From positions 1 through 27,311 of the IMG/VR virus record IMGVR_UViG_3300045911_000549: 27,311 bases of DNA, one strand, 5' to 3'. Position numbers and translations under genes: made by a program. The stretch is from a virus. Taxonomy: Duplodnaviria > Caudoviricetes. The notes under the pieces are model-generated. The model saw only the letters and a program-made list of their open reading frames with translations, had not been told where the DNA came from and searched no databases. Shown piece after piece: positions 1 to 27,311 of this stretch. The first letter of the stretch is position 1. Each line of letters begins with the position of its first letter.

Positions 1-85
1 CCGAATTGAAGCCTCAACCGGGCCGCGATCGAGTTCGCCGTCATGGACGATTTCCATGCTTGAATAAGCATGGCCGAATTGAAGC
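1..85 (+). CRISPR. CRISPR array fragment, type I-G (I-U)-like repeat: partial repeat (1-12), 37-bp spacer (13-49), full 36-bp repeat (50-85)
   Basis: Bases 1-12 (CCGAATTGAAGC) equal the last 12 nt of the 36-mer at 50-85 (ATTTCCATGCTTGAATAAGCATGGCCGAATTGAAGC). The repeat has a CCATGCT/AGCATGG hairpin and ends in ATTGAAGC, as I-G repeats do. The 37-nt spacer is far more GC-rich than the phage DNA. Confidence 0.85.
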
Positions 86-891
86 ACACAGCATTGGAGC
101 CTGTCCAAAAGGCTTTCCTCTTGATTATCGAGGTGTTTCAATCCGTTCAATCGGTCATTACTGACCTACTTGGGGCAGCCTTGTCTTTGGTAGGTATTGC
201 ATTGAAGCCTATCGGCTTTTTTTTGAAGATACTTCTTGCCCCCTTTCAGGTCTTGGGAAAGATTATCCAATTCTTGCTAAAGCCTTTGAATCTTGCTTTG
301 CAAGCATTTACGAAAGTCTTTGACGTTCTTACGTCTGTCTTTGGAATACTTGACCCGATTGCCAATTTATTCGATAGCCTTTTTGCTTCGGTCGGGGAAG
401 CCTTGAAAGGGATCGTAGAAACGATGGGGGGATTCTGGGGGGCAATCGGCAAGATATTCAAGTCGCTGGGGCAGGCCCTGATAAAGCTTACTCCAATTAC
501 TCCAATTATCGAAAGGATATTTAACGCTATCATTTCCTTTGTGAAAATGATCGGCGATGTAGTTGACTGGATTGGAAGGAAGGTTCAGAATCTTCTGGAT
601 AAATTACCCAATATCGGCGGTTCTTCCTCGGGCAAGTCTTCTTCGGCTTTCTTCCCGATTGGGGGGGCTTCTTCGGTAGGGGCAGCCAGCAATCAAGCCA
701 GCTACACTAGTTTTTACGATCTGGGGCAAAAAGCTCGCCAAATGTCGGCATCGGCAAGCGAAAGCCCAGAGACAAGGGAACTTGTCAAGTTGAATACTAA
801 CCTCAAAGCGATATTTGATAAAGTCTTCAATCTGGAAAAAGATACTCAAGCAAGCACCAAACTTTCGCAAATACCAACGGGTAACTACTAA
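86..891 (+). CDS. Tail tape-measure-like protein, C-terminal part (5'-truncated by the CRISPR repeat)
   Basis: Long amphipathic, hydrophobic helical repeats (LKPIGFFLKILLAPFQVLGKIIQFLLKPL...) upstream of tail genes. The ORF-track start MAELK at 70 is encoded by the repeat itself. Confidence 0.7.
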
Positions 892-1886
892 TGGCTTTAG
901 ATATTCAGCTCCCCGATTTCGCTATTCAAGAATTGGTCGAGAAGGTTGCCGATCAATCTCCGGGCACGGTTTCAATCTCCCTTGATGGGGCAGATTCAAA
1001 CATGGTCTACCAGCTACCGTGGGAAAAAAGATACGATGCAACGATCTTTATTCTTGGTGCAGCTTGGGTAGATCGTCCGTCAGGCGCTACTCCCGTTCTT
1101 CGACGGCTGATACCTTTACGACACCCAAGCTACCCGAATTTGTACGCTCGTAAGCTGTCTTACACTGGCAAGAAATGGACTGGCAAAGAATCGAACGGCG
1201 AAAATCTTCCTGAATGGAAAAGGCAAGATGAAACGTCTAAGTACTCTATCGCAGATTTTAACGTCGAATTTTCCCCGCTATACTTCAAAGTCTATACAGA
1301 CGATGAGGTATATAACCCAGAAACAGGCGAATACGAGGAATGGGAAAGATTTTGCAGGCTGTACTATCAGCCTGCCCCCGATCTCATTACCATCGAAAAC
1401 GGGTCATTCAAATGGGCAGAAGGACCAAAGACCGGCCAAGATTTCCCTGCAAATATAAGCTATCCAGAACGGAAAGCCGATATAACATTCAAATGGTTAT
1501 TCGTGCCACAAGAATACACGCACGATTCAAACGATATCCCTGTAAAGATCGAGGCTTGTATTGGAAAGCTGAATAGTCTTACAACCTTTGGAAGGGCAGC
1601 CGGTACTTTGCTTTTAGATTCGGTCGAATTTGAGCCGGTCACGATCCCCCTTGTGACCGATGATTGGCAAGCATATTTTGCCAATCATATCACCCTTAAA
1701 TTTAAGTTTTTCGATCCCCCGAACGGTGACCCCGGCTCATCTATTCGGGGGCATAATCTGCTGCCAGATCGGGGGGCAGATAATACTTGGTCTTATTATT
1801 ATGCAACTAATGATGGGACGATGACTGGCAAACCTTTGTATGATAGTACGGACTTTTATGAGATGTTTCGTTATTGGGGGGCTTAA
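891..1886 (+). CDS. Putative virion tail/baseplate protein (hypothetical)
   Basis: 331-aa ORF coupled to the previous stop (TAATG overlap), lying between the tape measure and the tail fibre. No family recognised. Confidence 0.55.
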   Translation: MALDIQLPDFAIQELVEKVADQSPGTVSISLDGADSNMVYQLPWEKRYDATIFILGAAWVDRPSGATPVLRRLIPLRHPSYPNLYARKLSYTGKKWTGKESNGENLPEWKRQDETSKYSIADFNVEFSPLYFKVYTDDEVYNPETGEYEEWERFCRLYYQPAPDLITIENGSFKWAEGPKTGQDFPANISYPERKADITFKWLFVPQEYTHDSNDIPVKIEACIGKLNSLTTFGRAAGTLLLDSVEFEPVTIPLVTDDWQAYFANHITLKFKFFDPPNGDPGSSIRGHNLLPDRGADNTWSYYYATNDGTMTGKPLYDSTDFYEMFRYWGA

Positions 1887-3787
1887 TTGTGCCTATCAAT
1901 ATCCCACCGGGGCCTTTATCTGCAAATACGGCTGCAAGACTATCTAGTCTTTTGAACAAGCTGGAACCGATTGCTGGGCTAAAATTTTCTGCCCCCCTTT
2001 CGATTTCTCGCTCAGGGGGCTTCCCCCTTGTTAATGCCGATGCCTTGCAAGATTCTGGGAACGGGGCAGGGATTACCGTTGAGGACACTTACGGGGCCAG
2101 CTTCTCGGGGATTGATACCCTTTTGCTGAATTATAGCGAAGTAACAAACCCTTCGGCTGGCACGGCTGAGATTACCCCTGTCCTTGCCAGCGACACCAGC
2201 CGGGGAGATATTAGCTTTGATCCAGACGAATGGGATTTACAAAAGCTGGGGCAGGGGACAAAAGTTGCGGACGGCTTTGGGATAGCGAACACCGAAGCCG
2301 ACAAAGATATTTTCCAGATATCAGGGGCACCCGGGGCTTCGGGGCCTTTTAGCATACCGGGGGTAAACGGGGGCAAATGCGTTTATTTGGGGAGAAGGAA
2401 CGTCGGGGGCACTTTCCCCGACTTTGATGGTTATACTTACCCTGCCCTTAAATGTAATATCGACACGTACTGGTATCGAGAAGGGGCAGCATTTGGGGAT
2501 ACCCCCGTTAGTGCAGGGGTGAGTGATCTAGTCCGCATTCGGGCAGGATCAACTGCAACAGGGGTATCGAGGGCCTTCACTTTTGCCCACCAATACCAGC
2601 ATCCTGTTTTCGGGACTTATGCATATTGTGATAGTCTGATCTCAGCCGTCAGGCCGATAGCTGATGGGTATTGGATCGGATTTCCAACGATGCCAACAAC
2701 TTTGGACGGGTATATCCTCGGGGCCAACGGGTATATTCAAGCGAAGATTAAATATCTAGTCGGGGACGGGATTGCAACGGTCGAAGGGGCCACCGGAACC
2801 GATTCTGTTGGCAATCACTTTACGGGTGGGATCGTTGACACGATTGGATCGGGGGGCAGCTTTCAAACGGGGATCCAATGGCAGGACGAAGGAAGTAATC
2901 TCGGGACATCGGGGACAGTAAACACGGTCGATTTTGTAGGCTCCGGCTTTACGGCGGAGCGATCAGGAAACAAAGTAACCGTGACTGGAACGGCTGCCCC
3001 TATCGATGCCCAATTCCTTTGCCTTGCTCTGAATGGTACTTTGACCCAAGAAAGACAACTGGCCCTTGAATCTGGGGTATTAACGGGAACCGACGGGGGG
3101 GCTGGGGGGAATTACACGATCTCAATTAATTCGGGGGGCATCGGGACGGGCAAGCTGGCTAACAATTCTGTAACCTTTGCCAAGTTTCAACAGATAGCTG
3201 CCCTAAGCTTATTCGGGAACCCAACGGGATCAACTGCAAACGGGCAGGAAATTACGCTCGGGCAGGGGCTTTCCTTTTCAGGGACTACCCTAGTTTGGAC
3301 AGGCACGACAGGGGCAACAGCTGCCCTTATCGATGGATCAGCCGTAACCTCGGGTCTGGTTTCAACGGCTGGCTCTGGGCTGGATTATGCCGAGCAAAGT
3401 TTAGCACCGGGTGTTTACAACATTTTTATGGGCCCGGGTTGGACAAACATTGGTCTAAATATGACCATCCCTTCGAATGGTAGATATACGTTCAAAGGCA
3501 TGTGGCGAGGTTACATTGTTCCTATTATGGGTGGGGCTGGTTACATGACGGCAGCTCTGTTCAAAAACGGAATTCTGATACCAAACTCCGAAAGCATACT
3601 TGTGGTGGACGCCGGCCGTGAAAGTGCTCAAGGCCAACAGCCAGTAACAGGAGATACTACAATTTGCATTGAAGGGGATATAATATCTTTGTACGCTCGC
3701 TGGAATGATGGCCCCCTAGTGGTTGCCCAAGTCGTGTCTGGGTTTGATGGTGTCACACGGATTGAATGCGAGCGTATAAAATTATAA
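1874..3787 (+). CDS. Tail fibre / receptor-binding-like protein (probable start GTG 1889)
   Basis: Gly/Thr/Ser-rich beta-type protein. Contains the tail-fibre-like segments DEGSNLGT..VNTVDFVG and IGTGKLANNSVTFAKFQ..SLFGNPTGSTAN, and a C-terminal beta-sandwich-like domain. Confidence 0.7.
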   Translation: MGGLIVPINIPPGPLSANTAARLSSLLNKLEPIAGLKFSAPLSISRSGGFPLVNADALQDSGNGAGITVEDTYGASFSGIDTLLLNYSEVTNPSAGTAEITPVLASDTSRGDISFDPDEWDLQKLGQGTKVADGFGIANTEADKDIFQISGAPGASGPFSIPGVNGGKCVYLGRRNVGGTFPDFDGYTYPALKCNIDTYWYREGAAFGDTPVSAGVSDLVRIRAGSTATGVSRAFTFAHQYQHPVFGTYAYCDSLISAVRPIADGYWIGFPTMPTTLDGYILGANGYIQAKIKYLVGDGIATVEGATGTDSVGNHFTGGIVDTIGSGGSFQTGIQWQDEGSNLGTSGTVNTVDFVGSGFTAERSGNKVTVTGTAAPIDAQFLCLALNGTLTQERQLALESGVLTGTDGGAGGNYTISINSGGIGTGKLANNSVTFAKFQQIAALSLFGNPTGSTANGQEITLGQGLSFSGTTLVWTGTTGATAALIDGSAVTSGLVSTAGSGLDYAEQSLAPGVYNIFMGPGWTNIGLNMTIPSNGRYTFKGMWRGYIVPIMGGAGYMTAALFKNGILIPNSESILVVDAGRESAQGQQPVTGDTTICIEGDIISLYARWNDGPLVVAQVVSGFDGVTRIECERIKL

Positions 3788-4754: not shown

Positions 4755-5708
4755 ATGTCAGATGCACAAAGCCCCAAAGATGCCCCCGTTCCTGCCCCTG
4801 CCCCTGCAATCGGGTCGGGGGGCTGGTTCACTGAAGCCCAAAAGAGTAAGCTGGTCGCTATCCTGATATTCTTTCTCGGGGCTCTGGCCCTTTTGATCCT
4901 ACAATGGCTTCGCAAGGAAGCTGGCCTAAATCAAGAAACCCCCACTCCCCAGCCACCAGCTTTGGTGGCTGAAAAACCTGCCCCTCAAGCCCTTGTCGAG
5001 GATGATATCCCCCTTTACTTTTGCGGGGATCGTCCACGGCTGCAAGATAATTTCCGAGCGAAGCGATTCCCAACCGATAAGATCACGTGGTCTATTGATC
5101 CTTCGGGATATGTTGGCAGATTGAAGCCCGAGGATATTATTCAAGCTTTCGAGATTGCTTGGCAGACTTGGAGACGCTGGCTAAATATCGAACCCGTGAA
5201 TGTTGGAAGCTGGGTCGCTGGGGCAGACGGGAAACAGGTCTGGAAGCCCAACGAGGCTAAAGCTTTGGTGCGGTCTCGGTTTGGGGTATTGATGCGAGAA
5301 GATGGCCGACCCGATGGCCCCCGCAACATTCTGGCTTATTCTGAATTGTCAGACGGAACGCTTGTTGCAAAAGAACAATTGTATGACAATGCCGAGAATT
5401 GGGGTATAGCAGAGAACCCCCCGGCTTCGATGATAGAAATGGTGCGGGTCGCTGCCCATGAGATCGGGCACGCTCTGGGGCTCGAGCACGATCACGTCGG
5501 CACAGGGGCTCTGATGGAACCGACGTATTCTCGCAACGTCCGCTTCCCCACCAGCCGAGACGCTAGTAGGATGTACCAGCTTGGATATAAGCCTCGTGAC
5601 GACAAGGCCAATCCTTCTAAGCCCATTCTCATTTCGGTAACAGCCGATGCGGAAAAACTAATTGATGCCCTGCGTCAGGCTGGGTATGCTATTGAGATAA
5701 AGAAATGA
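4755..5708 (+). CDS. Membrane-anchored matrixin (peptidase M10-like) zinc metalloprotease
   Basis: Metzincin motif HEIGHALGLEH followed by the Met-turn ALMEPTY; AFEIAWQTW helix; N-terminal TM segment LVAILIFFLGALALLIL. Confidence 0.85.
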   Translation: MSDAQSPKDAPVPAPAPAIGSGGWFTEAQKSKLVAILIFFLGALALLILQWLRKEAGLNQETPTPQPPALVAEKPAPQALVEDDIPLYFCGDRPRLQDNFRAKRFPTDKITWSIDPSGYVGRLKPEDIIQAFEIAWQTWRRWLNIEPVNVGSWVAGADGKQVWKPNEAKALVRSRFGVLMREDGRPDGPRNILAYSELSDGTLVAKEQLYDNAENWGIAENPPASMIEMVRVAAHEIGHALGLEHDHVGTGALMEPTYSRNVRFPTSRDASRMYQLGYKPRDDKANPSKPILISVTADAEKLIDALRQAGYAIEIKK

Positions 5709-5833
5709 TCGAAAGGTTAAAGATTGGGCTGGCAGCCGTAGAACCTTTGGCTAAATGGCTCACCCTTATAATCGCTATTCTATTCGTTGCATTTCTGTTA
5801 GATAATCTAAGGTTCCCAAAAAGAAAAAGGTAA
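5705..5833 (+). CDS. Small single-TM membrane protein (42 aa; holin-like candidate), not in the ORF track
   Basis: ATGA overlap with the upstream stop. Translates MIERLKIGLAAVEPLAKWLTLIIAILFVAFLLDNLRFPKRKR and ends 4 nt before the next ATG. Confidence 0.55.
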   Translation: MIERLKIGLAAVEPLAKWLTLIIAILFVAFLLDNLRFPKRKR

Positions 5834-5837
5834 AAAT

Positions 5838-7616
5838 ATGTTTTCGGCTTTGGCCTTATCGTATGTATTGGCTGCCCCAATTGATAAAGACGCTCAGATC
5901 ATCTCCCCAGCTTTGGTGGTTGTGGAAGTTGCCAAAGATATCGTCCGGCTTGTTGACAATCGAATTTATCGACCCGAAGAGATCCCTTTTCAGATTTGGT
6001 TTTCTTTTCATACTTTGCCCCCAGCTGATCGGGCAGACTTCCAAAGGATTTTTACCTTTTGGCTTAATCATCTTTCGGCAAGCCCCAGAATAGTAAGGCT
6101 TGAATACTTACAAGATAATTTAATAGGTCGGCTTGATGTTCGGGACGCTCCGAATTGGACACGCACGGGCTGGCAGATTGTCGGGAATCGCGACTATCTT
6201 TTTCGAGAACCGAATATCCCACACCTTGTTACCCAATTTGTTCGAGATTTCACAGGGGTAAAGCAAGATAAGGAAACGCTGGCAGCCGGAGTAATTTTGA
6301 ACGCTTGGCAGTTCTTTAGAGATACGATTGAATCCAATCGGGTGGGCAGCTATTACGATATCCTTTATGGGAAGCAAAGACACCCAGACGGGATTGTTCT
6401 GCCCCCTTCGGGGATCAGCCGACCCGCAAAGATTGAGCGAAAAGTAGTTTCTTGGGAAGGGGGGAAGTGGAAGGACGGGAAGGAATACCCAGCCGGTTCG
6501 TTTACTTATTACAAAGATATTGTGATTGAACCAGCCGTCGAAGCAAGCCCTTTTCCCCGAGTGATCCCCAGCGAAAAAAAAGGCGATGCGAATTTCCCAG
6601 CGACTGGTAAAGACTTCGAGACGATTTGGGGGGCAGACGTTTCAGCCGAAGCCCTGAAAAAGCTGGGGGTCGATCCTCGGGTTGGGGGCATCGCATTAGG
6701 CAAGCTTGACGGGGATGGGGCAGGAAGCTTTGTTGCCCTTCGCACAAGGGCAATTCGGGTAACTCCTTCGGCTTACGGGAATGTCAGCCGTACCTTTGAC
6801 GTTTTCCGCTCGCAAGGCGATAAAGATCATCGTCGAAGATTTGGGCAAATATCAAAAGGTGAGATCGGGGCAGACGGTTCGGAAATTCTCGCTACCTTGC
6901 CGAACGGGGCACAGGCTGGGCTTCTCTGTAATGACAAAGATGAACGGGTCGAGCTTGCCCCCTCTGACCTTGCCCAAGTCGATAGCAAGATTGATAAATT
7001 TGCAGACGTTAGAACGCATATGTCTTGCATCGTCTGCCATGCCCCGATGGGTGGATTTATCCCCTTCAACGAGCAAGTAAAGGCAGCTTTGGAAGCTGGG
7101 ATAAAGCTCGAAGCCCAAGACGATGACCCTGCAAAGCAAAGGGAGAAAGCCCGAAAGGTTGAAGAGTTTTATCTTGATTGGGAATACAAAATAAAGGGGT
7201 GGCAGGCCCCTTACCTTCGCTTCATTGAGCAAACTACGTTCGATCCAGTGACAAAAAAATCTTGGACACCAGCCGAAACGGTTGTCAGATTTCAAAAGTA
7301 CAGAGATCAATATGATAGACCTTTGAAAATTGACGATGCTTGCCGAGAATTGGGGGTAAGCCCTGCCCAGCTTCGGATAGCAATTTTGGCAAAGAAGCCT
7401 GTCGAGATTGGCCCTAACGAATTGGTCGTCGGTCGGTCGATATCCCGTGACTCTTGGGAATCGTCGGAGCAAGGGGGAGTCGCACGGGAATGCTATTTGC
7501 TCCTTGATGCTTGCAAAGAGCATGAAGAACGGGTAAAATTATTACTCAAAGATGGGCTGATCGAAGAAGCCATTAACGAGTTTAAAAAGCAATTCCTCGG
7601 GGAGAAGAAAAAGTGA
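5838..7616 (+). CDS. Exported Planctomycete-type protein with a c-type heme-binding motif
   Basis: SCIVCH (CxxCH), preceded by the GSEILATLPNGAQAGLL..D..VELAP segment that I recognise from planctomycete cytochrome-like proteins; short hydrophobic N-terminus. Confidence 0.7.
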   Translation: MFSALALSYVLAAPIDKDAQIISPALVVVEVAKDIVRLVDNRIYRPEEIPFQIWFSFHTLPPADRADFQRIFTFWLNHLSASPRIVRLEYLQDNLIGRLDVRDAPNWTRTGWQIVGNRDYLFREPNIPHLVTQFVRDFTGVKQDKETLAAGVILNAWQFFRDTIESNRVGSYYDILYGKQRHPDGIVLPPSGISRPAKIERKVVSWEGGKWKDGKEYPAGSFTYYKDIVIEPAVEASPFPRVIPSEKKGDANFPATGKDFETIWGADVSAEALKKLGVDPRVGGIALGKLDGDGAGSFVALRTRAIRVTPSAYGNVSRTFDVFRSQGDKDHRRRFGQISKGEIGADGSEILATLPNGAQAGLLCNDKDERVELAPSDLAQVDSKIDKFADVRTHMSCIVCHAPMGGFIPFNEQVKAALEAGIKLEAQDDDPAKQREKARKVEEFYLDWEYKIKGWQAPYLRFIEQTTFDPVTKKSWTPAETVVRFQKYRDQYDRPLKIDDACRELGVSPAQLRIAILAKKPVEIGPNELVVGRSISRDSWESSEQGGVARECYLLLDACKEHEERVKLLLKDGLIEEAINEFKKQFLGEKKK

Positions 7617-8215
7617 AACTATTTGCAGCCTTCGGGCTTCTGGCTTTTTTCGGGGCTTTGATGCTCCCCGAAGCCCACTCCGATTGTCGTAGGGTAATCG
7701 TCGGGGGGCAAACTTACGCTGCCCCCGTATATGCTGCTCCGATCTACCACCAAGCCCATGAAAACATTGTACTTGTGCCAAAGGCATTTCTGGTGCAGAC
7801 CCGTAGCGACTACGCTGCGGGAATCGGTGACGAGATTCGGCAGAAGCAATTTGCCAAAGATGTCGCCGACGAGCTTTACCGGATGATCCAAGAAGCCCAG
7901 CGATATCAAGCCCCTCCCCAGACAGGGGGGCAGACCAGACCACCCGTAGATGTAACTCCGAATCCTGCCCAGCCTTTGAAAGCCGAAGGGGTTACCATCA
8001 AGGATGTTCTGGCAAAAAATTGTGTATCCTGTCACGGGAAGGGTGGGAATCTGCCCCTACTGACTGGGGACCCCGACAAGATCGACTACTTAATTCGGGG
8101 GGATATCCTGAATGCAGTCGTCGAAGGCAGAATGCCCAAAAACAAGCCTGCCTTAACGCAGGAGGAACTTAACGTCGTTCACGCTTGGCAGGATCGAAGA
8201 AAAGCGAAAAAGTGA
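7613..8215 (+). CDS. Secreted monoheme cytochrome c domain protein
   Basis: Signal peptide MKLFAAFGLLAFFGALMLPEAHS. C-terminal KNCVSCHG, distal-ligand GRMPK and LTQEELNVVHAW helix fit a class I / Planctomycete cytochrome c fold. Confidence 0.8.
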   Translation: MKLFAAFGLLAFFGALMLPEAHSDCRRVIVGGQTYAAPVYAAPIYHQAHENIVLVPKAFLVQTRSDYAAGIGDEIRQKQFAKDVADELYRMIQEAQRYQAPPQTGGQTRPPVDVTPNPAQPLKAEGVTIKDVLAKNCVSCHGKGGNLPLLTGDPDKIDYLIRGDILNAVVEGRMPKNKPALTQEELNVVHAWQDRRKAKK

Positions 8216-8310
8216 TTGTATCGGGCAGATTCTTTGAGATAATATCTTTTTCGCTGTCAGATCGGGCGTAAAGCTACGTTACCCTTCTGTCTTTCTTCAA
8301 AGGAGATTTT

Positions 8311-8796
8311 ATGCGATTTTCTGCAATTCTGACCGCTCTGGGCCTTTTGGCTTTCGGGGCTGGCAATTCCTTCGCTGGGGATTGTTTGCGTATCAATCCT
8401 TCGGCTGGGGCAGCTTTCACCACAGGGGCTTACTCGCAAGGCTTTTCTGGGGGCTGCTCTGGGGCCTACACAGACGCACCTACCCAGACCCTTGAGATTC
8501 GCGGATTCTCGACGGGATCGGCTTACGTTGCCCCCCAACCGATTGTTTTGCGGGAAGTTGCACCCGCTCCGGCTTATCATCAAGGGCAGGCAATCGTTGT
8601 GCGACAGTTCAACGCGGGTCATGCTTACGGTGCCCAACAACCGGTGATTCTGCAACAACGAGCACAACCCGTAATTGTTCGTCGTCAAGTTGTCGTTGCA
8701 CGACAACAAGGACAAGCACAACAGGGGGTAGTTGGATTACTTCGAGTCGCTGCCAATACCGTCGCTGGTGTCGCTGGTGCTCTCATCGGTCGATAG
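8311..8796 (+). CDS. Secreted Val/Gln/Gly-rich protein
   Basis: Signal peptide MRFSAILTALGLLAFGAGNSFA, AAGGAG RBS, low-complexity QPIVLR/QPVIV repeats, C-terminal glycine-zipper-like helix. Confidence 0.7.
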   Translation: MRFSAILTALGLLAFGAGNSFAGDCLRINPSAGAAFTTGAYSQGFSGGCSGAYTDAPTQTLEIRGFSTGSAYVAPQPIVLREVAPAPAYHQGQAIVVRQFNAGHAYGAQQPVILQQRAQPVIVRRQVVVARQQGQAQQGVVGLLRVAANTVAGVAGALIGR

Positions 8797-15066: not shown

Positions 15067-15108
15067 GTAACATAGGGGATCGAACCCTACCCCAGCCTTT
15101 GCTGTTAC
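15067..15108 (-). ncRNA. tRNA-like minihelix element (acceptor-like stem + T-arm)
   Basis: GTAACA...TAGGG TTCGATC CCCTA-TGTTAC: a 5-bp T-stem with a TTCG loop stacked directly on a 6-bp closing stem. Confidence 0.55.
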
Positions 15109-15398
15109 GGCTGGGGGCTTCTAGCGACTTCGCTGAGGCTGGGGCTGGCTTTGCCATTACTCATCTTCTCCTCTTCTCCTTTCTGGGGCTTTCCTTTTCG
15201 GCTGATCTTGGGCAGCCGTTTACCTTTTTGCAGGTTGCAAAGGGTAGACCAGATTTCTTGGTTGGTATATCCGCTCGGGCATCGTTTCCGGAACCGAAAG
15301 GCAATACTCGTAAAAGATCGAGTGTAGGGTAGCTGATCGAGGGGAACCCCCATATCCGAGTACAGCTTGACCAGAATTTGAATATCACTTTCTTTCAT
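15105..15398 (-). CDS. Small basic protein (LDQLPYT...IWSTLCNLQKGKRLP family) directly downstream of the solitary CRISPR repeat
   Basis: Probable true start is ATG 15398 with AGGAGG at 15405-15410. The ORF-track start MAELK at 15494 lies inside the repeat. Confidence 0.7.
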   Translation of the reverse strand: MKESDIQILVKLYSDMGVPLDQLPYTRSFTSIAFRFRKRCPSGYTNQEIWSTLCNLQKGKRLPKISRKGKPQKGEEEKMSNGKASPSLSEVARSPQP

Positions 15399-15420
15399 AA
15401 TGAACCTCCTATTGTCATCT

Positions 15421-15470
15421 AAGCGTTTGCTCCGGACTCGAACCAGATCCTCTCGCGAGAAGATACCAAA
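15421..15470 (-). ncRNA. tRNA-like element (hairpin + T-arm) just 3' of the solitary repeat
   Basis: GTTTG-GT-ATCTTCTCGCGAGAGGA-TCTGG TTCGAGT CCGGA-G-CAAAC; canonical GGTTCGAGTCC T-arm at 15431-15447. Confidence 0.55.
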
Positions 15471-15478
15471 CCTACCAC

Positions 15479-15514
15479 GCTTCAATTCGGCCATGCTTAT
15501 TCAAGCATGGAAAT
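15479..15514 (-). CRISPR. Solitary CRISPR repeat unit (type I-G-like); candidate RNA anti-CRISPR / crRNA-like RNA
   Basis: The reverse complement is 36/36 identical to the repeat at 50-85. It is intergenic and in sense orientation in the early operon, with no second repeat at spacer distance on either side. Confidence 0.85.
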
Positions 15515-15555
15515 GATATATCGTTGTGCTTTGATGCACCAGATTAAGTAACAGA

Positions 15556-15753
15556 TCACGGCTTTTCGTCGCGGATGATTGCCCCGTTGGGGCCTGCCTT
15601 TAATACAATTTTGGGGCCTTTTTTTAATCCCTGATAAATCCAGACTGCAAGATCACGAAGGGCATCAATGGCTTTATCTCGGATTTCAATATCTTGAATA
15701 TCTTCGGATATACCATCCTCTAATTCATTGAAAATCTTTTGATAATCTACCAT
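15556..15753 (-). CDS. Small hypothetical protein (65 aa) upstream of the solitary repeat
   Basis: AAGGA RBS, acidic N-terminal half, co-directional with the operon. Confidence 0.65.
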   Translation of the reverse strand: MVDYQKIFNELEDGISEDIQDIEIRDKAIDALRDLAVWIYQGLKKGPKIVLKAGPNGAIIRDEKP

Positions 15754-15784: not shown

Positions 15785-16372
15785 TTATCTTAATCGGATC
15801 GGCTGGGGGCAATTCCCGTTAGGGCAGCTTTCTTGATTCGGATACACGACCCAGCTTCCCGAGGAGCCTTGATTGGGATAAGGGAAGCCGGGGGTGCGAT
15901 TGAGATAAAAGCTTTCGACCCTTTGGGCTTCGGTCTGTCTTGGATCGATCCCAACGGACTCAGGGCTTGGCAGAATGATCGGGGCAGAAACAGGCCCCGA
16001 AGAAATTGCCACAGCTTGGGTAGGCCATTGGCATTGGGTAGTTACTCGGCGGGTGCGATTGAGATAAAAGCTTTCGACCCTTTGGGCTTCGGTCTGTCTT
16101 GGATCGATCCCAACGGACTCAGGGCTTGGCAGAATGATCGGGGCAGAAACAGGCCCCGAAGAAATTGCCACAGCTTGGGTAGGCCATTGGCATTGGGTAG
16201 TTACTCGGCTGCCCCCTGATCCACCGCAAGGCTGGCAGAATCGAACAGGCCCACCGCACGATCCCGATTGCAACGGCTGGCAGGGGAAACACCGGAAAAA
16301 GAAAGCTTCGGCTTTCGCTGGGGCAAAAACAAAAGCCCCCAATCCGAGAAGGGCAAACAACAATTTTTTCAT
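15785..16372 (-). CDS. Secreted Cys/Pro-rich protein with an internal 53-aa duplication
   Basis: Signal peptide MKKLLFALLGLGAFVFAPAKAEA, C-terminal SCPNGNCP, AAGGAG RBS. Confidence 0.75.
   Translation of the reverse strand: MKKLLFALLGLGAFVFAPAKAEAFFFRCFPCQPLQSGSCGGPVRFCQPCGGSGGSRVTTQCQWPTQAVAISSGPVSAPIILPSPESVGIDPRQTEAQRVESFYLNRTRRVTTQCQWPTQAVAISSGPVSAPIILPSPESVGIDPRQTEAQRVESFYLNRTPGFPYPNQGSSGSWVVYPNQESCPNGNCPQPIRLR
15892..16209. repeat. Perfect 159-bp tandem duplication (15892-16050 / 16051-16209)
   Basis: Both copies begin GGGTGCGATTGAGATAAAAG and end GGGTAGTTACTCGGC; the duplication is in frame. Confidence 0.95.
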
Positions 16373-18395: not shown

Positions 18396-18578
18396 TTCTG
18401 GCTCCAAGAGTCAATAAAAAGGATGAGGGTTAAAAGCCCCAAGCCTATCAATCCTGAGATGGCAAAGGGGTTGCTGGTCTGGTGCTGGCAGGCAATACCT
18501 ACCAAGACAGCCAAAATACAGGCAGAAAAAAATCTCATTATCAACGTTCTCCGATGTTGATTTCCCCTCTTGGGGAAA

Positions 18579-18649
18579 GAATAGGCTGGGAATCGAACCC
18601 AGATTTCCCCCTTGTTTCGGGGGCTTCGCTACCGTTGGAATACCTATTC
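18579..18649 (-). tRNA. Full-cloverleaf tRNA-like gene with a non-canonical anticodon loop (nominal AAC)
   Basis: GAATAGG-TA-TTCCAACGGTAGCGAA-G-CCCCC GAAACAA GGGGG-AAAT-CTGGG TTCGATT CCCAG-CCTATTC. Acceptor, anticodon and T stems are perfect; it lacks U33 and an encoded CCA. Confidence 0.65.
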
Positions 18650-25460: not shown

Positions 25461-26402
25461 ATGCTCTCTAAGCTTCGTGAACGAATTCTAACTATGTCTC
25501 CTTCCTTCCCGAAGGTCGATAGGGAGAAATGCGTAGTCGAAGGAGTAAAGATTCTCGGCACAACTGCCCGAGATGGCAGCCGAATCTATCCCCCCGATTT
25601 AATCAAAAGCTCTGCCCCCCGATTTGAGGGGAAGCCTTCCAATATCAACCACCAGATCGAAGGCCACCGTAAATTTGGGGATAGATTCGGCTGGATTACC
25701 GATGTCGTTGCCAAAGATGACGGCTTGTATGCTACCCTGCACTACAATCCCCATATTGAAGGGGTCGAAGCTTTTCTCTGGTGGTGCGAGAATAACCCTA
25801 ACGGGTGTGGCTTTTCAATTGATGCCTTGCTTCAATTCGATAGGCCCCCCAATCAGCCGGGTAGGGTCGTCCAAGAATTCATAGAGATTTTTTCTGTCGA
25901 TTTGGTAGCTGATCCCAACACAACCGAGGGGATTACCGAATCTTTCAACCGAGGTAATTACATGGAACCGAAAGACGTTGTCGCTGGGCCTGCCCAAGAA
26001 GCCGAAGAAATTGTCGAAGCCGAAGTCCCGACCCTTTCGGAACTTGTCGGGCAGATTATCGCAAAAGTCGCAGTCTCGTCAGAATACGACGAGATTGCCC
26101 GAAACAAGATCATCAAGACCTGTCAGGATCTTTTGACCTTAATCAAAGGGGACGGGGCAGCTCCAACGGATACAAGCAACGAAGAGGAAGTAACACAAGA
26201 AAGCTTTAATGTGAAGCTACTCGAAACCCTTTCAAAGCTGAACGATAAGATCGATAACGGCTTTGCCAGCCGAACGGTCGAAGGAAGCCCCAAGCCAGCC
26301 AATCCCCAGCCAAAAAGCTTGCCTCGAACCGATGCAATTGTTCCCCCTGCCCCTGCAAGCTATCCCACAGTCGATCAACTGTTCGGGGAAGCCCAAAAGT
26401 AA
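25461..26402 (+). CDS. Prohead protease / scaffold fusion
   Basis: VEGVKILG, RIYP, NINH, GFSIDA and SVDLVADP.TT are HK97-like protease motifs; acidic, Pro-rich C-terminal scaffold region. Confidence 0.8.
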   Translation: MLSKLRERILTMSPSFPKVDREKCVVEGVKILGTTARDGSRIYPPDLIKSSAPRFEGKPSNINHQIEGHRKFGDRFGWITDVVAKDDGLYATLHYNPHIEGVEAFLWWCENNPNGCGFSIDALLQFDRPPNQPGRVVQEFIEIFSVDLVADPNTTEGITESFNRGNYMEPKDVVAGPAQEAEEIVEAEVPTLSELVGQIIAKVAVSSEYDEIARNKIIKTCQDLLTLIKGDGAAPTDTSNEEEVTQESFNVKLLETLSKLNDKIDNGFASRTVEGSPKPANPQPKSLPRTDAIVPPAPASYPTVDQLFGEAQK

Positions 26403-26454
26403 AATTTTTTGTCTGAAAGGTTCTTTGATTTAATAACTCTTCGAGGGTTCAATT

Positions 26455-26931
26455 GTGGCTAACAGAATTATCAGTAACCCATGGACATTTCCCGTCACGG
26501 TTCCTGTCGCTACGGCAAAAGCCGTATCTATGGGGGATCTCGTCGGGCTTTCTTCCAATACGCTGGTGAAAGCTTCGGACACGGCTTGGGACACTGATTT
26601 GGCAACTACGCAAACGAATTTTGCTGCCCTTTTCTTGGGCTTTTCCAACTGCGATAAGCTGGCAGATGTTGCCCGGGTTGTCGGGCAGCCGAACAACAAC
26701 GAGATCACGGTGAACGTATCGGGCTGCATCGAATACGATGCAGCCCCCGGGACTTATACGATTGGGGCTTTTGTTGGACCAGCCAAGCAATCGGGTAACG
26801 CTTTGGAAGACCAAAAGGTCGTGCCTGTCGATTCCCTTACCAAAGCTATTGGTATCAGCCAGACCACTGGCACGAATCCCAGCAAGTGCGTCGTTTTGAT
26901 CTTATCTAAGCTGATGCCAACCGCTCGCTGA
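26455..26931 (+). CDS. Head decoration / capsid cement protein
   Basis: AVSMGDLVG...FLGFS...YTIGAFVGP...LEDQKVV...AIG; lies between the protease and the MCP. Confidence 0.65.
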   Translation: MANRIISNPWTFPVTVPVATAKAVSMGDLVGLSSNTLVKASDTAWDTDLATTQTNFAALFLGFSNCDKLADVARVVGQPNNNEITVNVSGCIEYDAAPGTYTIGAFVGPAKQSGNALEDQKVVPVDSLTKAIGISQTTGTNPSKCVVLILSKLMPTAR

Positions 26932-27000
26932 TAAGATTGGGTAAGAATTTCCGAAAGGCAATAGTCTTGGCAGACCTTCAACCTTTGGGAGATTTGGAAT

Positions 27001-27311
27001 ATGTTTGTGAAAGATTCGGGTCGCACCATTGGTGAAAAGGTGCGAGAAGTAATGAAAAGGCCAGATATGCCTTTTCATATTAAGGTTGAAAGAACCGTCG
27101 AAGCCTTCAACAAAGGCAAATTCGAGAAGTCTTTTCAAGAAATGTCTTTGGCAGGATTTGCTGAGGGGCTTCTGGGCTCCAATTGGCAGATGTACCTGTT
27201 GCAATTTTCGCACGGGGCCAACTCGGGGATGATGGATAAGAACGGGCAGACCTATTGGGGGCGGGCGCAAGAATCGGTCGTCGGTATCGATCCCTCAGCC
27301 TTTACCAACAT
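27001..27311 (+). CDS. Major capsid protein, N-terminal part (runs off the window)
   Basis: Open frame from ATG 27001 (GGAG RBS) to the window end, MFVKDSGRTIGEKV...QESVVGIDPSAFTN; expected position after the decoration gene. Confidence 0.7.
   Translation, partial: MFVKDSGRTIGEKVREVMKRPDMPFHIKVERTVEAFNKGKFEKSFQEMSLAGFAEGLLGSNWQMYLLQFSHGANSGMMDKNGQTYWGRAQESVVGIDPSAFTN

Follow-up and report, generated by a model that had tools for sequence, protein, structure and literature searches.

The window, a stretch of 27,311 bases, covers the whole of a viral sequence record, and no sequence is readable 5′ of base 1. At its left end, on the plus strand, are found the 3′ end of a type I-G CRISPR repeat truncated by the contig end (positions 1–12, identical to 74–85), a 37-nt spacer (13–49), a complete 36-nt repeat in the transcribed orientation (50–85) and, directly joined to it, the 3′ part of a tape-measure gene (86–891, residues 226–492 of 492). 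The order of repeat end, 37-nt GC-rich spacer and repeat is confirmed by the sequence as it had been given in a preliminary description of this DNA. The rest of the record is that of a tailed phage, with terminase, portal and capsid genes directed rightward and genes for Sak4, a RecE-like protein and a helicase directed leftward. The 36-mer of 50–85 recurs exactly once elsewhere in the phage, at 15479–15514 on the minus strand. The two occurrences of the repeat differ in their properties and are treated in turn.

The repeat at 50–85 is ATTTCCATGCTTGAATAAGCATGGCCGAATTGAAGC and has an 8-bp hairpin (z −2.75). Rfam at gathering thresholds gives no matches in the window. An exact scan of the GTDB genomes with the 36-mer yields 12 loci, all 12 of which are in one Gemmataceae MAG (G004), and the repeat is carried by two of the 252 genomes of the family to which G004 belongs. 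Since the same 36-mer forms Gemmataceae arrays and recurs once in the phage, its presence at 50–85 is not due to chance.

At the level of the host genome, one G004 contig displays the order cas3g-cas8g2-cas7g-csb2-cas4/1-cas2, followed by a leader and an array. A second operon has cas3g, cas8g1, cas7g and csb2. Spacers in G004 are 34–40 nt in length, with a mode of 37, in 116 of 118 intervals; the two longer intervals span a damaged repeat. The two repeats adjacent to cas2 are one base off the window repeat, and both forms are common to the same arrays, with 93 and 165 copies of the two among the G004 contigs fetched. The repeat in 1–85 is therefore that of arrays with 34–40-nt spacers which lie beside cas3g, cas8g, cas7g (Csb1), csb2 and cas4/1, and the type I-G assignment that had been made from the sequence alone is borne out by the adjoining operon. 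The leader, next to cas2, is on the 5′ side in the orientation of the window, and accordingly 1–85 runs in the direction of transcription; the direction of I-G integration was taken from the literature (PMC10504553). Type I-G leaders (loci L095–L147) show a CTCG(A/C) motif at about −51/−52 from the first repeat, which 17 of the 23 have within −58 to −48, together with a less pronounced AAG block near −20. Genome G206 (L127 and L128), which is placed in the family of G004 and has a record titled Alcaligenaceae, has a repeat variant and a leader in common with G004.

The spacer at 13–49 has a GC content of 68% versus 45% for 86–891. It matches the tail-tube gene (PF06199) of an unrelated virus of 64% GC at 37 of 37 positions, in both of the two viral contigs found, and the target is preceded by TTC. 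Logan contigs of runs X5 and X7 also contain this spacer. Positions 1–85 are most likely host array DNA. Among the 241 unique spacers of G004 none matches the phage at full length, nor does any of 829 spacers of related arrays. Thus, G004 marks the host lineage and not the targeting strain. When the phage was compared with G004 and G206 by BLAST, the matches were of low complexity or at chance level only.

The open reading frame at 70–891 scores as a tail tape measure (PHROGs). Its ATG falls inside the repeat, and the protein would begin with MAELKH; the reading frame has no genuine start, and its first residues come from the repeat, as had been observed previously. A scan of viral contigs with 86–106 gave two matches, G001 and L001. 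The latter was dropped as a chance match, as only 21 nt are in common and the flanks are unrelated. The former is a record of the intact phage. It is 100% identical to the window over 26284–27311 and 98.5% identical over 86–3345, with a single base difference within 86–891, and it supplies 4,972 nt that are absent between these window parts: the remainder of the capsid gene, genes of the tail and the beginning of the tape-measure gene. In G001 the tape-measure gene encodes 492 amino acids, window base 86 corresponds to position 2 of codon 225, and TTT stands directly before base 86. The gene is also unbroken in a circular relative, G002. In three of four Logan runs compared over 1–700, a long contig spans 86 onward, and its upstream sequence is that of G001 and not the repeat; the four runs are by record one sample, and the contigs come from runs other than the source of the window. 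An intact allele across the junction is thus present in G001, in G002 and in three of the four runs.

In the fourth run (X5), phage cover has gaps at 97–120 and 443–446. A contig of this run joins repeat bases 57–85 to 139–442. This second joint is 53 nt past the first and also follows TTT (136–138), which suggests a second spacer against the tape-measure gene, with a putative protospacer that starts at 139 (PAM and protospacer, 136–175). TTN is the reported I-G PAM (10.1101/2022.08.08.503147), and the three protospacers are preceded by TTC, TTT and TTT. The frequencies of TT at the three sites are 0.10, 0.10 and 0.033, and the chance product is about 3 in 10,000.

The junction at 85/86 is very probably an assembly chimera through a spacer-protospacer match. 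This was the reading favoured in the preliminary description, and it is supported by the intact gene in G001, in G002 and in three of the four Logan runs; the in-frame tape-measure sequence and TTN motif expected upstream of 86 in the phage allele are both present. From the PAM and the geometry we infer a spacer, identical to its protospacer, that begins at 86 and joins array and phage; it would extend to about 122, with an uncertain right end, as array spacers are 34–40 nt. A host cell would carry an array in the order repeat, spacer 13–49, repeat, spacer 86 to ∼122. With phage coverage absent upstream of 86, array reads would be the only extension of the contig, which would thus have run from the protospacer into the array. 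The array allele, that is 86–122 followed by a repeat, was not found (no matches in the metagenome scan or in the genomes), and no joint that returns to the repeat after 86–122 is among the joints listed in the four Logan runs. Neither of the two metagenome scans made gave a match.

Fragments of host arrays joined to viral contigs via a spacer-protospacer match are a known assembly artefact. The present case resembles it in the location of the array at a contig end, in the spacer-length overlap with a phage gene and in the correct PAM in the intact allele. It differs in two respects: another run has a second, independent joint of the same kind, 53 nt downstream of the first, and a copy of the repeat is encoded by the phage as well.

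Two other accounts of the junction had been put forward in the preliminary description, and neither has gained support. The first is that phage DNA was truly recombined or inserted at a spacer match in the host array, which would leave the array attached to a shortened tape-measure gene. The reading frame across the joint is open and takes its ATG from the repeat, and joints of repeat to phage are seen in two assemblies, the window and X5. However, these joints are located exactly at PAM-defined spacer starts, as ordinary array reads would give, and where phage cover is thin, as seen in the two gaps of X5. In addition, the tape-measure gene would lose 224 of its 492 residues, and the four virus records, one of which is circular, yielded neither a tyrosine nor a serine recombinase. 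A true fusion is accordingly very improbable. Less probable still, to the point of being hardly credible, is that the tape-measure gene is interrupted by a phage-borne mini-array at 1–85. A related phage, G003, does have a five-repeat array of the same repeat, but this lies between two intact genes; the tape-measure gene is unbroken in G001, G002 and the three Logan runs, and the fragment is terminal in the contig, without phage DNA on its far side. The flagged junction is therefore most likely an artefact and not biology. A chimera formed through a spacer match nevertheless implies that a Gemmataceae lineage with a type I-G system likely hosts and targets this phage, with targeting at 86 deduced from the PAM and the geometry.

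The array of G003 merits description in its own right. This phage has portal and terminase proteins 52% and 50% identical to those of the window phage. Its array (L004:482–808) has five repeat copies and four spacers, is situated between two intact convergent genes and displays no leader motif. Depth of the spacers is 415–850 (runs X1 and X2) versus about 170 for a host trailer-end spacer (X2), which suggests that this is a real phage-borne mini-array. No target of its spacers was found in the four phage records.

Three further features of the window phage were observed. An exact 159-nt tandem duplication is present at 15892–16209, within a gene for a 195-aa protein. G002 has a single copy of the 159 nt, run X7 contains the junction of the duplication, and the duplication is likely a real polymorphism. 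At 4755–8796, rightward after the tail genes, are genes for a matrixin-type metallopeptidase, a 592-aa protein and a cytochrome-c-domain protein, which by judgement are Planctomycete-like. A tRNA-Val gene with the unusual anticodon AAC is at 18578–18649; it is present in G001 and not called in G002.

The second copy of the repeat (15479–15514, minus strand) is encoded by the phage. It matches the G004 repeat at 36 of 36 positions, the hairpin is intact, and it is co-oriented with the leftward replication/recombination gene block. The preliminary description had stated that the phage carries the repeat of the array, and an exact copy is indeed real in G002 and in Logan contigs. In G002 the flanks are identical over 300 nt upstream of the repeat and over 80 nt on its downstream side. 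G002 is 99.2% identical to the phage over the whole block and is therefore too close for the shared repeat to speak of selection; it speaks of the reality of the element. Contigs of Logan run X9, with depths of 33 and 41 and thus at the level of the phage, enter the lone repeat from opposite sides, and runs X7 and X2 have one side each. The flanks are without cover in run X11. No contig in the Logan runs bridges the repeat with 31 nt on both sides, as would be expected in a 31-mer graph for a 36-mer of very high copy number, and no joint that skips the repeat is found among the Logan joints listed. A sister allele free of the repeat was sought via the neighbouring proteins; viral contigs gave only G002, and genomes gave two weak, unrelated matches.

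The lone repeat is situated in a 157-nt gap (15399–15555) between two small genes, both on the minus strand. Upstream is a gene for a 65-aa acidic protein (15556–15753), which has one 49%-identical relative of the same extent. Downstream is a gene for a 97-aa protein with a small Planctomycete domain (15105–15398). Some gene calls for the latter start inside the repeat, at an internal ATG, and give 129 amino acids; an intergenic search would therefore miss the repeat. The true start is at 15398, where relatives also start, and the motif AGGAGG is at 15410–15405. The 80 nt between repeat and gene (15399–15478) end in this ribosome-binding site and have no significant fold; no guide target was found for them. 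A T-arm-like appearance of the sequence downstream of the repeat was considered and rejected, as ARAGORN calls no tRNA here and the fold is no better than those of shuffled sequences. Nor does the repeat split a gene, since the upstream protein terminates at the same residue as its relative.

At the protein level, no Pfam, PHROGs or PADLOC match and no anti-CRISPR annotation was found for the small neighbours of the repeat, and the 97-aa protein has no match in Pfam, PHROGs or NCBIfam. The 65-aa protein shows a weak fold likeness to Acb2/Tad1 hairpins, below the threshold of the tool. Rfam gives nothing meaningful around the repeat.

By sequence, the lone repeat is a solitary repeat unit. The SRUFinder criteria (PMC10651486) of at least 90% identity and coverage, an intergenic location and no repeat within 100 nt were applied by hand, and the repeat has all three properties. 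No full or partial repeat is present within 100 nt, the best similarity being 15–16 of 36 positions on each side. Solitary repeat units have been described as RNA anti-CRISPRs (Racrs) (Camara-Wilpert et al., 2023; PMC10651486). The element resembles these in that it is a single intergenic repeat of the host subtype with an intact hairpin, has no second repeat within 100 nt and is surrounded by small genes of unknown function. It is unlike them in subtype: the phage repeat is of type I-G, where Csb2 is a Cas5-Cas6 fusion, and those tested in that report are I-C, I-E, I-F and V-A. Racrs are often found next to acr genes. A further difference is that the phage unit has no clear promoter of its own. 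Two promoter sites were found, with 1.0 ± 0.9 expected, and the nearer one is weak and 270 nt upstream of the repeat; the Racr promoter criterion is a location within 250 nt upstream.

Perhaps the lone repeat is a decoy akin to RacrIF1, a tentative identification to which we give slightly less than an even chance. By analogy with RacrIF1, the leftward transcript would carry the repeat hairpin, and host Csb2 would bind and cut this hairpin and stay on the upstream product; the cut is predicted to fall between 15487 and 15486. Cas7g would then coat the guide-less RNA, such that effector subunits would be titrated. For RacrIF1, inhibition is carried by the product upstream of the cut (PMC10651486), and the I-G Csb2 is described as binding the hairpin tightly and remaining on it (10.1101/2022.08.08.503147). 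The supplement to the Racr study lists about 25 I-G candidates, and the phage repeat is not among the 16 of these I-G rows that were compared (PMC10651486). No report on a Racr with type I-G was found in the literature searched. Apparently lone I-G repeats are also found in other viral contigs (L072, L076, L079, L084, L087 and L090). L084 and L090 are in the same supplement, and L072, L076, L079 and L087 are not among the 16 I-G rows compared.

At the transcribed RNA level, the repeat is on the coding strand in the 5′ leader of the 97-aa gene. This raises the question of whether it functions as a Csb2 cut site in phage mRNA, 84 nt ahead of the gene, by which the level of the protein would sense the host I-G effector. 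A relative of the 97-aa protein, 31% identical, is encoded in the Gemmataceae genome G013 between cas3 and cse1, together with a repeat-like RNA whose guide matches the promoter of the relative, which links the family to CRISPR control in at least one case. Of seven family matches, however, only one has a CRISPR context within 1.5 kb; the others are fusions with TIR (two) or standalone. Such an mRNA switch is unlikely. A more elaborate version, in which the phage captured a gene of a family held under CRISPR repression in Gemmataceae hosts and placed the host repeat in the mRNA leader, where Csb2 would be both soaked up and set the level of the protein, is distinctly improbable.

The G013 module is of type I-E (L177:1368–1790; G013:C3, about 2,919,000–2,919,420). 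Between cas3 and cse1 is a 68-aa gene, after which come a repeat, a 35-nt guide and a degenerate repeat. The guide matches the promoter of the gene itself over 15 nt with mismatches only at 6 and 12, with the PAM AAA, just before TTGACA. The 68-aa protein, which is the 31%-identical relative of the phage protein, has no NCBIfam match, and it is a candidate for a new CRISPR-repressed toxin family. The arrangement is similar to that of CrePA (10.1101/2024.01.05.574328). The phage locus differs from CrePA in that no promoter target of a guide was found in the phage, and in that CreP is described as a KilAC-domain protein, whereas the 97-aa protein is without a Pfam, PHROGs or NCBIfam match (10.1101/2024.01.05.574328). 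No report on crlRNA in Planctomycetes was found in the literature searched.

The 8-nt handle of the lone repeat and the next ∼37 nt might instead function as a guide, either against sister phages, as in one-repeat homing cassettes, or against a promoter, as a CRISPR-like regulatory RNA. An intact handle is present, and in the phage's own copy the repeat occupies the PAM position, which would protect self. There is also a 16-of-20 match in the related phage G003, but this has GTA at the PAM position, mismatches at 1 and 2, and ends at 19. An exact 20-mer scan of viral contigs returned only G002. No TTN-flanked seed exceeds 8 nt in any of the four phage records or in the two host cas loci; the best seed against a PAM-flanked promoter, the CreA/CreR-type arrangement, is 8 nt. 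The seed pattern has no matches in G004 and one in G206, and no terminator or second repeat bounds the putative guide. A guide function is consequently rather doubtful, and somewhat more so than the simple mRNA switch.

Virus-borne mini-arrays offer a further comparison. SPV1 and SPV2 carry mini-arrays (Medvedeva et al., 2019; PMC6858448), and the likeness is that a virus lacking cas genes has a host repeat; an array of this sort is present in G003. From what is described for SPV1 and SPV2, the window phage is unlike them in that it has one repeat, with no inter-repeat spacer, no conserved leader motif and no target found.

The lone repeat could also be a recent neutral relic of recombination with the leader end of a host array, or an attachment site for integration into the array. 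The flank in question (15515–15570, minus strand) has a weak likeness to the host leader, and part of this likeness is the coding end of the upstream gene. Of 23 leaders, that of the host itself gives the best alignment with the 62 nt upstream of the repeat (score of 38 versus at most 30), a score reached by 0.1% of random phage stretches, although this was tested after the likeness had been noticed; in addition, all known carriers are near-identical here. Against this, the flank lacks the CTCG(A/C) motif that 17 of the 23 leaders have at −58 to −48, and random sequences score as well on the leader profile. The block of greatest similarity codes for the end of the upstream protein (Glu-Lys-Pro-stop), which the 49%-identical relative also has. 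With respect to an attachment site, no phage integrase was found: PF00589 and PF00239 have no matches in the four virus records, and other recombinase families were scanned in the 31 proteins of the window. Integration of prophages into CRISPR repeats is described in Streptococcus pyogenes (10.1101/2020.10.09.333658), and the sharing of a repeat sequence by phage and host is common to both cases. The window phage is unlike the S. pyogenes example, as far as it is described there, in that no integrase was found in the circular relative G002 and in that the sequence which follows the repeat at 86 differs from the flank of the copy at 15479–15514. A relic or attachment site is unlikely, to about the same degree as the mRNA switch. 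The decoy RNA is the most probable of these readings.

Repeats at the ends of viral contigs can thus simulate mini-arrays and gene starts, and the window provides a warning in this respect. The chimeric junction still gives a strong host assignment, in that a small hot-spring phage family is linked to Gemmataceae with a type I-G system. The lone repeat provides an exact type I-G candidate for an RNA anti-CRISPR, one that is directly testable since purified I-G effectors exist. Within one phage family, the same host repeat is found as a lone copy in the window phage and as a five-repeat array in G003, and the two phages therefore offer a natural comparison.
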